A stretch of 64,000 nucleotides of DNA, taken from positions 145,082,001-145,146,000 of the forward strand of contig NC_086097.1 of the NCBI RefSeq assembly GCF_963921235.1, given 5' to 3'. Shown here in pieces: positions 3,105 to 60,710 of the stretch (position 1 is its first letter; every line of letters begins with the position of its first letter). The position numbers and the translations under genes are program-made. The notes below the pieces were generated by a model that saw nothing but the letters and a program-made list of their open reading frames with translations, did not search any database and had not been told where the DNA came from. The DNA comes from Mobula hypostoma. Lineage: Eukaryota.

Positions 3105-3305
3105 CCACTGACCCACACTAGCGCAATATATATTGTAGCCAATTAACCCACCAGCACATCTTTGGGATGTGGGAGGAAAAAGTTCACCTTGGAGAAAACC
3201 CATACAACCACAGGGAAAACACATGAACTCTAGGCAGACAGGACTTGGAAGTTAGGACTGAATCCAGACTGCTATTACAGTCCAACAGCAGCACCAACTG
3301 TGGGC
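3105..3305 (-). mobile_element. V-domain (HE1-like) SINE fragment
   Basis: Reverse complement of the SINE core (gagttcatgtgttttccctgtggttgtatgggttttctcc...ttcctcccacatcccaaagatgtg). Confidence 0.6.
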
Positions 3306-3514
3306 CATTACATCTGTACTTGCTTTAATTTTCTTTATCTTCATCACTTTTGCTACCTCAATCCCTGTTATTATAAAATTATCTCCTCCTGTCCGCAGGA
3401 CAAATATTGCTTGACAAACTCAGTAAAGCATTCTGTTGTTTCTGCTCAATTCAATATCAGCTTTCATGCAGGAGGTAAGCCTACATGCTACATTCTTGAG
3501 AAACACAGTGGGAT

Positions 3515-4790
3515 TCAGACCACAAGACATACGAGCAGAATAAGGCATTCGGCCCATTGAGGCTGCCGCGCCATTCAATCATGGCTGATTTATTTTAACT
3601 TTCGACCCCGTTCTGCTGCCTTCTCCTTGTGACCTTTGATGCTCTCTCTAATCAAGAAACTATCAACCTTCGTTTTAAATATACCCAAAGACTTACCCTC
3701 TGCAGACATCAATGGCAATGAATTCCACAGCTTCAACACAATCTGGCTAAAGAAATTCTTCCTTATCTCTGATCCATATCCTCCAAGAGGACCACAGCCT
3801 TGTCATAGGGTTTGGAAGCTTGCGTGCTTCAATGACTCAGAGAGCTAAGTTGGCTGGAGTCAGTGTTTTATGCCTTGGCTCCAAGTAGGGTCACCCATGC
3901 CAAACAAGTCAAAGGGTAGAGGCCAAACAAATAGTGGTCCACCTGTCCTCCAGGTTTGAGGGTTCAGCCCAGGGCTAACAACCCTGACTGGTAAAACAAA
4001 ATTGCTACAGAAATAGCAGTGAACTTCCCTTCTTCATCCGAGTGCGATAGCATTCCTGAGACTCTACCCGGGACTAGCAAGACTGACAGTAGTGAAAACC
4101 AAAAGGAAGCTACTGACATGATGAAAGAAGCCCTGAGCACCAGCAGAGACGGACGACCTTCTTTGCTGCGCTAAATGCCTGCAGCATAATGGGCAGTAAG
4201 TAAGTAACTCCGATCCATCTGCTCTGAGGCTGTGTCTCACACTAATGGAATCATCCTCTGCACATCCACTTTATCTAGGCCTTTCAATAAGATACCAGTC
4301 TCATTCTTCTAAACTCCAATGAGTAGAGGCCCAAAACCATCAAGCACTCCTCATGCATTAACTCTTTCATTCCTGGGGCCATTTTCATGAACTTCCTCTG
4401 GACCCTCTTCAATGACAGCACATCCTTTCTCAGCTATGGGGACCAAAACTGCTTTCAATACACCAAATGCAGTCTGACCAATGGCTTATGAAGCTTCAGC
4501 ATTACATCATTGCTCTTATATTCTAGTTCTCTGGAAATGAACATTTGCAAAAAAAAAGTTCATTATGTCATTTGGATCATTAACATATGATGTGAAAAAT
4601 AGCGACCCAAAACGGACACCTGCAGAAAACCACTAGTCTTCAGCAGCCAGCCAGAAAATAACCTCCTTGTTCTCACTCTTGGTCTTCTGATAGAAGATTC
4701 AGTCAATCTTCTATACATGATAGTATCTTTCTTTGTAATACCATGGGAAATTACCTTGTTTAGTATGACATTTTGTCAAAGGTTTTTCCG
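3515..4790 (-). mobile_element. CR1 fragment (3' end and RT), interrupted by an RTE-derived insert at 3778-4207
   Basis: Reverse-complement similarity to the CR1 at 360-2232. Confidence 0.8.
3778..4207 (+). mobile_element. Short non-autonomous RTE/BovB-related element (5' UTR fused to a (taag)n tail)
   Basis: Begins ggaccacagccttgtc...gtggtccac like BovB/Expander 5' UTRs and ends cagtaagtaagtaa. Flanked by ctctgatccat (3767-3777) and ctccgatccat (4208-4218). Confidence 0.75.
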
Positions 4791-10029: not shown

Positions 10030-10284
10030 TGTGGCAGCTTGCCCACACGGCAAGCAAAGCGGCTCCAGCAGTCGCGGGCGAGTCCGCAGCCAGCAGCAAC
10101 CGAGAGGGCTCTGAGTGTGGGGCAGACCTCGGCCCAGAAGCCAACGTCACTTCCGCCCCGCAAAGAGCAGGGGATGCTGGGAGCGGGCACTTAAGCGCGC
10201 GCGGATTGAAACAGTAAACAGTTCAACCAGACCCTGCTCGACTCAGTGTGTTGTTTTCACTCGTTGCGTATCAGCGCGACCACA
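10030..10284 (+). repeat. 5' LTR
   Basis: tgtggcagc...cgcgaccaca; direct repeat of 14036-14290. Confidence 0.95.
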
Positions 10285-10975: not shown

Positions 10976-13900
10976 TATGGCTACGGTGGCTGGTCACCGT
11001 ATAGCCTCCTCTATGTTTGGGACAAGCCCTCTGGGCGAAGATTCCTGGTGGACATGGGGGCGGAAATTAGTGTCCTACCCCCCTCGAGCCACGATACCCA
11101 AACTAGAAGAACAGGACCGGAACTTACGGCAGCCAACAGCAGCATCATCCGCACCTACGGCACAAGAACCATCCCCTTGCAGTTCGGTTCCAGCTGCTTT
11201 ACATGGACATTTACGCTGGCCGCAGTATCACAGCCATTGCTGAGTGCGGACTTCCTCTTCGCGCACTGCCTGCTCGTGGATTTGAAGGGACGATGATTGG
11301 TCGATGTGAAGACATTCCAGACTTCCTCCTTCAGTGAGGCCAGGTTACCGGCCCCGCACCTGGACTCCATCACTTATTCCGACAACGAGTTCGCCAGAGT
11401 GTTATCGTAGTTCCCATCTATCATCACGCCACAGTTTTCTTCAACAAATCCCAAGCACGGCATGATGCACCACATCCCCACACAGGGACCTCCCCTTCAT
11501 GCCCGGGCCCGCAGGCTACCACCCGACAAGCTCCGCCTCGCGAAGGAGGAATTCAAGATGGCGGAGATGGGGATTGTGCGGTGTTCCAACAGCCCGTGGG
11601 CCTCCCCACTCCATATGGTGCCCAAGTCCACGGGAGGGTGGAGACTGTGCGGCAACTATCGGAGGCCGAACGACGCCACCACGTCCGATCGCTATCCGGT
11701 ACCACACATCCAGGACTTTATGGCCAACCTGCACGGGGTGCGCAACTTTTCGTAGATTGACCTGGTCCGAGGGTATCATCAGATCCCAGTCCACGCAGAT
11801 GATGTACCCAAGACGGCCCTCATTACCCCCTTTGGCCTGGTCGAGTTCCTCAGGATGCCGTTCGGGCTCAAAAACACAACGCAAACGTTCCAGCGCCTGA
11901 TGGACGCAGTAGAGCGAGATCTGGACTTTTTGTTCATCTACCTGGATGACATACTTATCGCCAGCCACTCCCACCAGGAACATCTAGAACATCCACACCT
12001 GCTCTGCCGCCGCCTAAGCGACTACAGCCTGGCTATCAACCCCGCCAAGTGCCAGTTCGGCCTACCTGCCATCGACTTCTTGGGACACCGGATCGACCGC
12101 CATGGAGCTGTGCCTCTGCCGGCGAAAGTTGAAGCCATCTGCCAATTCGCCAGACCCAGCACCGTTAAAGGCCTGCAGGAATTTGTTGGGATGGTTAACT
12201 TTTATCACCGTTTCCTGCCCTCAGCGGCCTGGATCATGCAGCCCATTTTGGCTTGATGTTCGACAAGGTCAAAGAGGTCACCTGGACAGAGAAGGCGATG
12301 GCAGCTTTTGAACAAGCCAAGAACATGCTAGCAAACGCCACACTCCTGGTCCACCCACGGGTCGACGACCCCACTGCCCTCACTGTGGAGGCCTCCGACG
12401 CAGCAATTGGCGGCATGCTCGAGCAGCTCATCAAAGGCCAGTGGAAGCCATTTGCTTCTTTCAGCCGGCACCTATGACCCCCGGAACTTAAGTACAGCAC
12501 TTTCAACAGGGAGCTGCTGGCCCTGTACCTTGCCATCTGGCACTTCAGGTATTTCCTGAAGGGAGGGAGTTCACTGTCTTCACAGACCACAAACCCCTCA
12601 CTTTCGCTTTTGCTAAAGTGTCGGACCTGTGGTCGGGCCGCCAGCAACGCCACCTGTCGTACATCTCGGAGTTTACCACCACGATCAAGCACATCTTCGG
12701 GAAGAACAAAGTGGTGGCTGACGCGCTGTCACGCACCTCTGTCCAATCAGTGCACTCTCTGTCTCCGGGGGTGGATTATGCGGCGTTAGCTAAGGCACAA
12801 TGACTGGACGGTGAGATGCCGGCGTACCAAACCGCAGTCTCAGGACTCTGCCTCGAAGACATACCCATTGGGCCTGAAGGTAATGAGCCCCTTTGTGATG
12901 TGTCCACCGGGCAACCTTGGCCCAATGTCCTGACCGCTTGGAGGCGCCGCGTTTTTGATGCGTTGCACGGTTTAGCCCACCCTTCCATCAGGGCGACCAT
13001 CCGGCTGATCGCAGACAGGTTTGTGTGGCACGGCCTACACAAGCAGGTCGGGCACTGGGCCAGGACATGCACGCACCGTCAAACATCCAAAATCCAGAGG
13101 CAAGTGAGGGCCCCACTGCAACCAACACATAGGAGGTTTGAACATGTCCATGTGGACATCGTCGGCCCACTGCCGGTTTTGAGAGGAGCGAGATACCTGT
13201 TCACCATGGTGGACAGGTTCACGAGGCGGCCGGAAGCTGTCCCACTCGCTGACACGGCCGCGGAGACATGCGCCAGAGCCCTGATTACCACCTGGGTGAC
13301 ACGGTTCGGACTCCCAGCCCACGTCACTTCAGACAGGGGTGTACAGTTCACATCGGCTTTGTGGTCTGAACTGGCACAACTCCTCAGAATCCAGCTCCAC
13401 CGAACGACTGCTTACCACCCGCAGTCTAACGGCCTGGTGGAATGTTTCCACAGGCACTTGAAGTCGGCCCTGATGGCACGCCTCTGAGGGCCAGACTGGG
13501 TGGACAAACTCCCCTGGGTGCTGCTTGGTATCCACACGGCACCCAAGGAGAACCTGGCCGCATCATTGGCCGAACTGGTTCACAGTGCCCGCTCACAGTT
13601 CCCGGTGAGTTTGTGCCAGCACCCCGTGACCCGGAGAACACATCTGCTGGGGTCCTAACTAAACTCCAGGAGCGGCTTGGAACACTTGCCCCAGTCCCGA
13701 TGTCCCATCACGGAACAACACCCTCTTTCGTGCCCAAGGACCTATAACAGAGCAAGAATGTTTTCGTTCGCCGAGGTGCGCACAGACCACCCCTGCAGCG
13801 ACCATACAAGGGACTCTACAAGGTGGTGCGCCATAATGGGACGACCTGCATTCTCGACAGCAGCGGTCGTGAAGAGACTTTTACCATTCACTGTCTCAAA

Positions 13901-51319: not shown

Positions 51320-51843
51320 ATATCCAACGATGACAGGAGACCTGTGTAGGAGAGTTATTAAAGTAGAAAGGCAGTTGCATTCGAGCAGTTCCACTCTCTT
51401 GACCTTGGAAGTCCGGATTCAGTGGTACGAGTAGTCGTGACAAACTGGGATCTTCCTTGGTTGTAGTGGATGAGTATGACTTCCTCTGTGCCTTGTCATA
51501 CCCTTCACTCTCAACAAAGTGTTGGAAAACCACCTTCATGACCACTGGGTCTCACAGTTGATCTCATCCACCCAGTCCACCAGAGCTGACTTGACATGCT
51601 AGGACAGGCGTGCCCCTACTTCACTGGGGTATGAGACCCACCACCTAGCCCCAGCTGGTTTAGCCCACCTGTCGAAGCAGTGTACCGGGGTGAGACCGCT
51701 GTTGCATACTAACAGCTACTTGGAGCCGTAGATGAAAGCTGAGGTTTAGGTGGGGCCCAAAGGTAAGTGGGCTGTCCTAGAATAGACATGATAAGCTCTT
51801 TCATCAGAGGAGCCACCGTTGCATGCACACCCCATACACCCCC
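51320..51843 (-). mobile_element. Short RTE-5'UTR-like non-coding element (copy 1) with a degenerate HDV-like fold
   Basis: Colinear with 59085-59576 (cagctacttggagcc, ggtgggg..ccaaaggta, cacccca). Confidence 0.65.
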
Positions 51844-55020: not shown

Positions 55021-55749
55021 GGAATTTCTATCCAATATTTTCTTCTACCGTCCTATCCACCATTAGTTAATTAATCAATTAAATATTAGTTACATTATTC
55101 ATTGCATTTATTAAATTGATATTAAAATATAATTTAAATAAATGACACAATTAACCATTAGTACAAGGCAATCCTTTAAGATCAAACATATTCTGTATAA
55201 ATCCATGAGTACTTTGGTCACTTTTCCTGCCAACCAAATTATTAAGCATGCTACGACCTTGACAGTCCTTCATGTTTTGTTTGAATAAGAAACACTGGTG
55301 AACTAGTGACTTAAAATATGCAGCAGCAGGTGAAATTCTTGTTAGAAAAATTAAGTCCAAGTATTTAACGGACATTATTCTCCCCCAGAGGAAGGGACGG
55401 AAAAATTCCAAGACATCAATCACAATTCCCTCTGGGTAAAGGACTCTCAGTGCATGTTCAGTGATAACAGCTGGCAGGAAGGAATAGGCCAGTTCTTTGA
55501 TCGCACGGATGATGGACATGGTTGCCTTTTTCATAAATTGAGGATGTGTGAATTGAAAAGGAGGTCACATCAGATGATTTGGTCACGTCAGTATAATAAA
55601 TCCTCAATTAGAACTAAAAACTGTGGAAATAATCAGCCATGGAAGAAACATTTGTTAACTTTTGAATGTGGGACCTTTGCCAGAATCGTGGTTATGGCTG
55701 CATGGGTCTGTAGTGGTCATCATCATGGGGCTGCAGATCAACGGTCCCA

Positions 55750-58431: not shown

Positions 58432-58800
58432 ATAGAGCTTAAGGAGCAGTTACTTTCCCTCATCCATCAGCCTCTTGAACCAGAGGAGATAACTTCACTC
58501 TACTTCACTCATCCGACCCTGAACTGGTTTCACACCAAGGGACTCATTTTCAAGGACGTTACAGCTCATGTTCTCAACATTTATTTCTTTATTATTATTA
58601 TGACTATACTTTTCTCTTTTTTGTATTTGCAATTTCTTGCTTTTTGCACATCGGCTGTTTGTCTTTGCAGTTTTTCATTGATTATATTGTGTTTCTTTGT
58701 ATTTACTGTATATGCCTGAAAGAAAGTGATTCTGAGGGTAGTATATGATGACATATACTGTATGCACTTTGATAATAAATCATTTCAAATATTTGAACTT
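58432..58800 (+). mobile_element. L2/Rex1-type LINE 3' tail
   Basis: catcagcctcttgaaccag...gtatatgatgacatatactgtatgcactttgataataaa, similar to the tails at 46570-46900 and 59920-60115. Confidence 0.6.
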
Positions 58801-59084
58801 TAAGACAGTATCCACTATAAGGTTATTAAAAAAAAGTTGCATGCCACAACTTTAAAAATCCATCAGTGTCTATCACTGAAGTCTTGGTTAATTATTATTC
58901 TTTATCCCACACCTAAAACAGTTAAGTACTGTATTATAATTCTTTCTGTAAGTGGTTGTGAAAGAGCAGGGAAATTGATTAGATTTTTAAAAGGTGTAAT
59001 TAATATTGTGGTAGTCCTTTGGATTCGAAGAAGACACGCTGTTATGCAGTTCATCTGTGGAAAAACTTCTGTGATGAATCGCAC

Positions 59085-59576
59085 AACAGAAACCTGTGTG
59101 TGATGGTGGAACAGCCATTGTACAGGGGCAATCCCACTCTCTTGGCAGAAGAGACCTTGATCCAGTGACACGGACAACCAGTACGGCTGGAGAGCTCTCC
59201 TGCTTCAGTGGATGACCAGGACGTCTAAGTGCCTTGTCGTGCTCTTAGCGCCCCACAATGCCTACTGGGCCTGTCTTCTTGACCGTTGGACCATTAATCA
59301 GTCTCCTCCGCTCAATCTGCCAGGGCCAGACTTCACACGCTGGGATAGACAGATCCCCTACCTCACCGAAGGTCGAAGATCCGTCAGCTACCCTCACCTG
59401 GTTTGGCCTGTCTGCCGAGACGGTTTACCAGGGTGTGGCCGCTGCGCGTATTACAGCTACTTGGAGCCACAGGTGAGAGCTGAGCACCAGGTGGGGACCA
59501 AAGGTAGAGGAGCTGCCCTGAAAAGGGCACAGCAGGCCCCCCACCAGAGGTGCTACCCCTCCCTAGACACCCCATA
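59085..59576 (-). mobile_element. Short RTE-5'UTR-like non-coding element (copy 2)
   Basis: Colinear with 51320-51843; no RT sequence. Confidence 0.65.
59393..59573 (-). ncRNA. Putative HDV-like self-cleaving ribozyme
   Basis: Hand fold: P1 GGGGUGU/ACACCCU, P2 CUCACCUGU/AC-C-AGGUGAG, P3 GGC/GCC, L3 UCCAAGU plus an inserted hairpin, P1.1 CC/GG, P4 GUCU-CGGC-AGAC and J4/2 G-C-C-A-A. Confidence 0.7.
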
Positions 59577-60710
59577 ACTAATAAAAGAGACAATATTGAA
59601 CAGTTCATGTGGAGAAATACTAATCCATTATAGAGATTTTGTCGCCCAATATTTCAAGACAAATTTATGTAAATCAATCCTGCATTTGCTTACAGGAATC
59701 TCATAACAATTCTTGCCAATTGAACCACTTTGTTGCTGTAGTGCAGGAAACACTAAGAGCTAAACTAGAGCTCTCTAGGAAGAAACGGAGCCAGCATCTG
59801 TACCTACAACTATACGCACATCATCACTAACGGTGCTATAATGCTGATCTGTTTTATTTTTGCGACCAGAAGCAGGTGGAGAGACTTTGCCTGGGATAAG
59901 GGAAGGATCCCTTTATTTGGGTTTGCTGCAACATGTCAGATTCACAGTTTGTTGTCTTTTGCACATTGGTTTTTTGTCCAAACTGTTGTGTACAGTCTTT
60001 CATTGATTCTATCATGATTCTTGGATTTACTGAGAATGCCCGCAAGTAAAAGAATCTCAGGGGTGATACATATGTACTTCGATAAAAAGTTTACTTTGAA
60101 CTTTGAACTTTGAATTTCCAAAAGGACCTTCACTCCAATGAAGTGCAGAAGTAGCATATTTGAACTAATCATAGAATTCATAGAACAGTACAGCTCAAAA
60201 TGACCCAAAATGTTGAGCTGAGCCTTTAACCTGCTCCAAGATCAATTTACCTCTTCCCTCCTATATAGCTCTCCATTTCTCCTTCCTTCATCAATGTGCA
60301 TATTAAAAGCTACCTATTAGCTCAATCAAATCTGCAGGGAAGCATTTCTCTACATGAGCGGACTGATCTGATTGTAAATGCCTTTCATTCATTGCATCTT
60401 CCTAAACGTTAATTTTCTATTTCCTCTAACTACATATCTTTCTCATTTCCCATACGCTTTAATGTCTAATTCACTCAGCTATTCACTTACCACTCCTACA
60501 ATAAACCAGTTCTGATTTTCTAATTATATTCTACAGCAATTAAAATATCTTGTCTTTCAAACAACTATACTATTCCCTCTTAAAATAATACAGACTCAAC
60601 TTCATACAGTTTATGATGCATCTCCACACTTCTCTGCAGAGTATGTGGTAACAACTCACTGATGGGTCATTCTGTTTAATCTCCTGTTTGTTGGCTTTGT
60701 CATAGCCAGT

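Follow-up and report, generated by a model that had tools for sequence, protein, structure and literature searches.

A short RTE-ended element headed by a putative HDV-like ribozyme with a hairpin inserted in L3

The locus and its host element

The window analysed here, a stretch of 64,000 nucleotides, carries on its minus strand a ~570-nt element that runs from ~59576 down to 59006, contains no ORF (its longest ATG-started frame has 63 codons) and is headed by an HDV-like ribozyme fold. The parts of this element outside the fold, and a second copy in the window, are as follows:

59575-59583, minus strand: target-site duplication (TATTAGTTA), 5' copy; its final bases are shared with the TAT remnant of the element head
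59574-59576, minus strand: TAT remnant of the first 9-nt repeat of the family head, placed by loose ends at 59576 in 4/4 runs and by alignment of three full heads
59100-59390, minus strand: remaining RTE-type 5' UTR, with GGTCATCCACTG at 59217-59206 and AAGAGAGTG near 59140
59006-59040, minus strand: RTE-type 3' end (TCTTCGAATCCAAAGGAC, 59031-59014), by eye like those of RTE-1_PSi and RTE-3_AMi in the accessible part of the source
58997-59005, minus strand: 3' copy of the target-site duplication, TATTAATTA, which matches the 5' copy
51340-51842, minus strand: second, more decayed copy that keeps the two 5' repeats and has 6 bp in its L3 hairpin; its lower end is approximate

The 9-bp target duplication matches 59005-58997 at eight of nine positions, the longest of five candidate matches, and sequencing depth drops to flank level past ~59582. 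Both GGTCATCCACTG and AAGAGAGTG also occur in the 5' UTRs of RTE-2_CPB and RTE-11_PSi (text search of the accessible supplement of PMC5786205), where the motif lies 363 and ~381 nt, respectively, from the 5' end, compared with 366 nt from the family 5' end in the focal copy and 373 nt in L025, a distant relative described below, whose 3' end also matches that of the focal element. ARAGORN found no tRNA gene in 58500-60200, and a tRNA-headed SINE was rejected, there being no tRNA-derived head and the HDV-like fold accounting for the whole head. Judged on its sequence, the focal element is a bipartite non-autonomous RTE as the available text of Kojima (2018; PMC5786205) defines that class: an RTE 5' UTR is joined to a 3' end (motifs recognized by text search and by eye), there is no ORF, and the element is dispersed in high copy and flanked by a target duplication.

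In four runs from four organisms, 3369, 3046, 2921 and 2382 contigs align to the element, and summed depth, which is not copy number, is ~80 to 350,000 inside it vs 0-14 on its flanks. Runs X9 and X14 show equal depth on both flanks, 58954-58980 and 59602-59682 (8.22; 3.7), suggesting one contig across an empty site, and in runs X1 and X5 contigs cross from flank into element; judging from depth, organisms A and B may be the only ones to carry the insertion. The commonest subfamily in the four runs differs in the J1/2 interior (59542-59484) and is nearer there to the copy at 51.8 kb; the focal copy belongs to a minor subfamily.

The 51.8 kb copy is 72% identical to the focal copy over 220 nt; no RTE 3' motif was seen in it, and no third copy lies within the 64 kb window. 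Elsewhere, a decayed LINE (62500-60900), which we take to be Rex1/Babar-like, stands on the same strand ~1.3 kb upstream of the focal element. LTR-retroelement remains with reverse transcriptase and integrase domains form a GC-rich block at 11756-13487 (plus strand) that lies between the two copies, at 10030 and 14036, of a 255-nt direct repeat, and an exon-like frame of 137 codons at 55151-55564 (minus strand) has no Pfam or PDB match. No host gene, nor its orientation, was found among 26 window frames compared with Pfam, which gave retroelement domains only.

The predicted fold and its conservation across copies

An earlier note on this DNA had proposed that the minus strand folds into a nested double pseudoknot, and a direct check of the sequence finds all of its pieces where it had placed them. 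Read 5' to 3', the fold comprises:

59567-59573, minus strand: second GGGGUGU repeat, the earlier note's P1 strand and the sole P1 strand available in the focal copy
59480-59566, minus strand: J1/2 peripheral domain, a long irregular hairpin (fold -41.6 kcal/mol)
59469-59479, minus strand: 5' side of P2, forming 11 bp against a 3' strand that has one bulged C; pairing in 90.9% of cells across copies
59466-59468, minus strand: P3 5' strand, GGC; 100% paired
59458-59465, minus strand: canonical-length part of L3, UCCAAGUA, with U20, C21, C22, A23, A24 and a G25 candidate at 59460; invariant in 5/5 copies
59441-59457, minus strand: inserted hairpin, 5-bp stem GCUGU/GCAGC and variable 7-nt loop; 25/25 cells paired
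59440, minus strand: invariant G after the hairpin, which can wobble-pair with U20, stacking the hairpin on P3
59437-59439, minus strand: P3 3' strand, GCC; GUC in the 51.8 kb copy still pairs
59430-59436, minus strand: P1 3' strand, ACACCCU; the family form is ACACCCC
59424-59429, minus strand: GG of P1.1 (59429-59428) and a 4-nt J1.1/4, from the copy alignment and pairing table
59408-59423, minus strand: P4 hairpin, 6 bp in the family, with one mismatch in the focal copy (A59409)
59403-59407, minus strand: J4/2, G-C-C-A-A, with the candidate catalytic C75 at 59406; G-C-U-A-A in other copies
59391-59402, minus strand: P2 3' strand, from the pairing table

P1 pairs GGGGUGU (59573-59567) with ACACCCU (59436-59430), and J1/2, put at roughly 85-90 nt before, measures 87-89 nt. 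P2 joins 59477-59469 to 59402-59391 around one bulged C and reaches further than had been claimed, to 59479; P3 is GGC (59468-59466) with GCC (59439-59437), the GG of P1.1 directly follows P1, and the P4 hairpin (59423-59408) is followed by GCCAA with C59406. The J1/2 hairpin is closed by CUAGG (59566-59562) with CCUGG (59491-59487), and the family's ACACUC strand is altered in the focal copy at 59486 and 59485, where the majority letters of the runs differ. The bulged C near the core end of P2 (59401-59400) is common to all copies. In the focal copy, 59483-59478 could also pair with 59388-59383, lengthening P2 by a short helix past an internal loop, and this helix would compete with the J1/2-closing strand.

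As pairing potential, P1, P1.1, P2, P3 and P4 occur in the order of an HDV-like ribozyme, J4/2 supplies C-N-R-A as C59406-C-A-A, and U20, Y21, Y22 and G25 are present in L3 together with GG for P1.1, the G partner of U20 having two candidates. The pairings exceed chance: a descriptor of HDV topology with an L3 of 7-45 nt, run over the two strands of the whole window, finds one match (G1 at 59573, U20 at 59465, L3 of 26 nt, C75 at 59406), compared with four matches in 997 dinucleotide-shuffled windows and two when the 221-nt region is shuffled 136,668 times, rates that are flattering because the descriptor was written after the site was seen. Rfam returned no HDV-type match to the region, even at E 10, its HDV models presumably not being built for long inserts; a mir-1343 match (24 bits, cut-off 51) is merely the J1/2 hairpin, and the other Rfam matches are at chance level. 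The plain minimum free energy of the region is no better than that of shuffles (z -1.46), MFE folding being unable to represent pseudoknots.

Scanning metagenomes yielded 21 rows for 20 distinct loci, two of which, L025 and L040, are true relatives. These are AT-rich contigs of one record, holding one full and two partial copies, and are ~89% identical to window positions 59484-59389 over 96 nt of ribozyme core. The record resembles a different kind of animal, and the identity of the core could reflect either strong constraint or horizontal transfer. The 82 other loci that fit the search patterns (18 metagenomic, the rest viral or bacterial; four patterns gave 21, 12, 24 and 0 loci in viral contigs, and bacterial genomes gave 0 and 7) score at most 16.8 bits with a model of the family, vs 126-258 for the five training copies, and were dismissed as chance. 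In L040 the first ribozyme head runs directly into a fragment of insulinase (M16), after which come an acidic frame and one for an OTU protease (Pfam; frames at 93-467, 498-935 and 936-1580, second head at 1796), and is thus joined to captured genes, not to an RTE tail. In L025 an intronless ubiquitin-hydrolase (UCH) frame at 3163-4311 crosses the element's 3' end into the flank, and no clear target duplication was found around the full copy.

All five copies agree over the core from G18 up to where the hairpin starts, in the GG of P1.1 and at C75, A77 and A78, and J1/2 diverges. Of 173 helix cells 92.5% are paired, vs 38-52% with slid partners. Covariation is not significant on these five rows, three of which are near-identical (54 of 500 shuffles score as high): two pairs show a two-sided change, one being an artefact of the focal copy's truncation and the real one lying in P4, where one two-sided change (C-G/U-A) is accompanied by three one-sided changes.

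The element's 5' end and the state of the focal copy

The earlier equation of G1 (59573) with the element's 5' end stands for the focal copy and fails for the family, given the loose ends and three other heads. The family head is a tandem GGGGTGTAT-GGGGTGT, beginning 9 nt upstream of G59573. The best-supported loose end in 4/4 runs, at 59576, continues CACCCC on the plus strand and then scatters (164, 155, 157 and 119 records in the four runs, among the best 24 of 905 rows), and all three other copies with a 5' end (51842, L025 and L040) start with GGGGTGTATGGGGTGT. Because the loose ends of the four runs and these three heads agree, the family start is placed at the equivalent of 59582. Although a further pile of ends at 59573 may exist beyond the best 24 of the 905 loose-end rows, the best-supported ends put the element end on the family's first repeat, not on G59573.

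This doubling probably separates two roles in full-length copies: the modelled folds have the first repeat forming P1 and the second closing the J1/2 helix (P1.2). In the best-kept copies, L025 and L040, the second repeat is predicted to close a long J1/2 helix by pairing with the ACACUC that immediately precedes P2. An HDV fold that uses the first repeat for P1 is there better than the best nested fold by 4.5 and 8.7 kcal/mol, respectively, and better than the second-repeat register by 3.4 kcal/mol, all with no pseudoknot penalty applied. The nested fold of the decayed copy at 51.8 kb is not beaten by either register, and of the two it is the second-repeat one that scores better. The run majorities at 59485 and 59486 restore ACAC (95/96/60/56% and 99/96/70/84% of depth). 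Since the focal copy has lost its first repeat, its G59573 belongs, on alignment with the other heads, to the second P1-strand copy and is a spare strand.

The focal copy is not the intact ribozyme for which it had been taken. It lacks GGGGTG (6 nt) of the family's likely P1 strand, and two positions at CpG sites look decayed: U59430 is C in 78/67/42/82% of depth in the four runs, and A59409, the P4 mismatch, is G in 74/75/59/79%. The G1-U wobble noted before is present, and most likely arose by CpG mutation from a G-C pair of the family, 59430 being at a CpG site and C in most of the depth of three runs. Additionally, the HDV fold of the focal copy lies 5.3 kcal/mol above its best nested fold before any pseudoknot penalty.

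These observations bear on the earlier note's version, in which the focal copy is itself active and cuts 5' of G59573. No core base is missing, U stands at -1, where in genomic HDV it gives the fastest cleavage (accessible text of PMC1874588), and P1 formed with the second repeat stacks at -14.2 kcal/mol, far stronger than the -4.0 of the weakened J1/2 pairing that it would replace. However, the competing nested fold traps the P2 strand, whose pair probability is 0.0, P4 is mismatched, and a P1 built from the second repeat would abut the J1/2 helix with no linker, an arrangement in which zero-spacer Agam-2-1 constructs are inactive (PMC4908430, in the part available). This version is therefore doubtful: with a misfold predicted, cleavage by the focal copy is likely poor or absent, and efficient cleavage by it would be something of a surprise. 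The preferred reading, a cut at the first repeat of full-length copies, concerns the family, for which we consider catalytic activity quite probable.

The L3 loop and its inserted hairpin

The start of L3, UCCAAGUA at 59465-59458, places U20, C21 and C22 as had been proposed; the placement of G25 is less certain, G59440 also being able to pair with U20. The extra hairpin, GCUGU-AAUACGC-GCAGC (59457-59441), has 5 bp, one more than previously counted. Its stem is kept in 5/5 copies, including those of the unrelated AT-rich record, with one one-sided change (U-G/U-A) and no two-sided change; it is 6 bp long in the copy at 51.8 kb, and the form most frequent in the four runs combines a perfect 5-bp stem with yet another loop sequence. 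Because the stem is kept while the loops differ among copies, the hairpin is a family trait.

The hairpin is inserted after eight L3 bases, i.e., after position 27, which in HDV is extruded and dispensable. L3 spans U20-U27 in genomic HDV and 7 nt in CPEB3 (accessible parts of PMC1874588 and bioRxiv 2022.09.22.508989). In the family it is 26-28 nt long, vs 7-8 in published descriptors, and position 24, usually C, is A in 5/5 copies, a departure overlooked before. Published RNArobo descriptors specify L3 as TYYHCG*Y or TNCNCGY, restrict J1/2 to at most 51 nt and demand C at 24; the family does not fit TYYHCG*Y, and since loop length, A24 and J1/2 length all fail, such descriptors miss it. This bears out the expectation that a fixed-L3 descriptor would overlook the site, an L3 of 7-9 nt giving 0 matches in the window. 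An R2 ribozyme of a sow bug whose L3 carries C-to-A and G-to-A changes is inactive (PMC3774820, in the part available), which calls for caution about the activity of a family with A24.

Two other geometries of the same ribozyme can be drawn. U20 may pair with G59440, so that P3 and the hairpin stack into a single long helix, CCAAGUA becomes a 7-nt bulge that gives C21 and C22 to P1.1, and G59440 fills or replaces the role of G25. The lowest-energy local fold does pair U20 with G59440, not leaving U20 for G25 (it is the minimum-energy P3-L3 fold in three of four copies and lies 2.4 kcal/mol below open L3 in 4/4), G59440 is invariant in 5/5 copies, and the stacking would explain a dispensable C24. 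However, nested energy models that favor G59440 ignore core tertiary contacts, G59460 is likewise invariant and lies exactly five after U20, and known structures have a U20-G25 reverse wobble, with G25A strongly impairing cleavage (available text of PMC13635239). We thus regard this geometry as possible and on balance unlikely. Considerably less probable still is that P3 closes at once with GCU (59457-59455) around an 8-nt loop, leaving the insert between P3 and P1. Such a GGC/GCU pairing is available in 4/4 copies tested and would give L3 its normal 8 nt, but it is weaker by 4.3-5.1 kcal/mol in three copies and by 1.0 in the fourth, it leaves the conserved CAGC and GCC/GUC unexplained, and published descriptors join P3' straight to P1'. 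An L3 carrying the hairpin on its 3' side is the geometry retained below.

Proposed function and comparison with known systems

The reading that we consider probable is that the focal site heads a short non-coding RTE-ended element whose HDV-like head, with its L3 hairpin, cuts in full-length copies at the first G of the doubled strand. By analogy with known retroelement ribozymes, the element would be transcribed as part of a host read-through transcript, and in full-length copies the ribozyme would cut 5' of the first G, releasing the element, with C75 serving as the general acid together with Mg2+ (as described in the accessible text of PMC13635239). The second repeat would close the J1/2 helix and pinch P1 against the 11-bp P2, as in drz-Agam-2, the L3 hairpin would project from the 3' side of L3, and a putative autonomous RTE protein would then copy the cut RNA, priming reverse transcription at the RTE 3' end. 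The focal copy, having lost that first G, could use the spare repeat and cut 5' of G59573. The family 5' end falls on the first repeat (4/4 runs, 3/3 heads), where a cut 5' of G1 would place it.

Alternatively, the family could be a catalytically dead relic whose fold is kept as a protein-binding or promoter signal, transcription start setting the 5' end. There are two departures in the most constrained loop (its length and A24), there is no Rfam match, and in some trypanosome elements this stretch serves as a promoter (PMC3383444, in the part available). Against this, hosts that differ greatly share the same C75, A77, A78, U20 and P1.1 without change, and the P1 strand is where element ends lie, making a dead relic improbable. 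More speculatively, the self-cleaving reading could be extended to an active subclass in which L3 is rebuilt around a P3-stacked helix that replaces C24, and perhaps U20-G25, with a back-up cut site in the second repeat through which 5'-truncated copies such as the focal one could still free themselves, carried by one RTE lineage across vertebrates and invertebrates; we put this forward tentatively and doubt it in its full form.

Searches for the HDV fold take L3 to be its fixed part. If an L3 helix is tolerated or needed, surveys by structure have missed a class that, in four organisms or more, accounts for thousands of contigs in each genome, and the rules for how the active site is built must be made wider. 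With its doubled P1 strand, the family offers a simple test of how such elements set and keep their 5' ends, and the focal copy is a poor construct for study. Ribozyme release of RTE elements and ribozymes on internally deleted elements are already known, and doubled P1 strands have precedents in R2 junctions and a sea-urchin alignment. No HDV-like ribozyme with an L3 helix, nor the core motif in print, was found in the literature, whose coverage for RTE-ribozyme papers was incomplete, so the novelty of the L3 helix in print is provisional. In the accessible supplement of PMC5786205 there were 0 matches for three ribozyme core motifs and 0 for CAGCGGCCAC, and a hagfish supplement gave 0 matches for five motifs.

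In their accessible parts, the published accounts agree with the earlier note that RTE-clade 5' ends can carry HDV-like ribozymes, reported at the 5' junction (PMC3774820, PMC5786205, PMC6765202), and place such ribozymes at the 5' ends of RTE, R2, R4, Baggins and L1Tc (Ruminski et al., 2011, via the same three sources). The focal family shares with the RTE- and R2-type ribozymes its position at the element's 5' end and the proposed release from a co-transcript and, like the focal element, internally deleted non-autonomous elements (R2 SIDEs, NARTc) carry HDV-like ribozymes. The bipartite RTEs RTESINE1/2, WALLSI3 and MAR4_MD likewise combine an RTE 5' UTR with a 3' end and have no ORF and no tRNA head (Kojima, 2018; available text of PMC5786205), their partners being RTE-2_CPB, RTE-11_PSi, RTE-3_AMi and RTE-1_PSi; in the part available, these RTE families and the focal element have GGTCATCCACTG at the same distance from the 5' end and a similar 3' end.

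A close structural parallel is drz-Agam-2-1 of Anopheles gambiae, a ribozyme linked to an RTE element. It too is a nested double pseudoknot with a large helical J1/2 (P1.2) and short linkers, and it is activated by the J1/2 helix plus a long P2 (12 bp, against 11 bp in the focal family; Webb et al., 2016; PMC4908430, in the part available). In that part no L3 helix is described for it, whereas the focal family has an L3 of 26-28 nt with a 5-6 bp stem, A24 and a doubled P1 strand. In R2 ribozymes the variable parts are J1/2, P1 and P4, and L3 is conserved (accessible text of PMC3774820), unlike the focal family with its L3 insert. At R2 junctions, two tandem strands are also able to pair with P1' (PMC3774820, Fig. 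8 legend); as far as that source was available, the R2 duplicate comes from the 28S target and is transient, whereas that of the focal family is element-encoded and kept in two distant hosts, and its inner copy, unlike the R2 duplicate, is predicted to have a partner of its own. A sea-urchin HDV-like family provides a further parallel, 5 of its 11 sequences carrying a 9-10 nt repeat ahead of P1 (PMC4870747, Fig. S15, as read from the figure).
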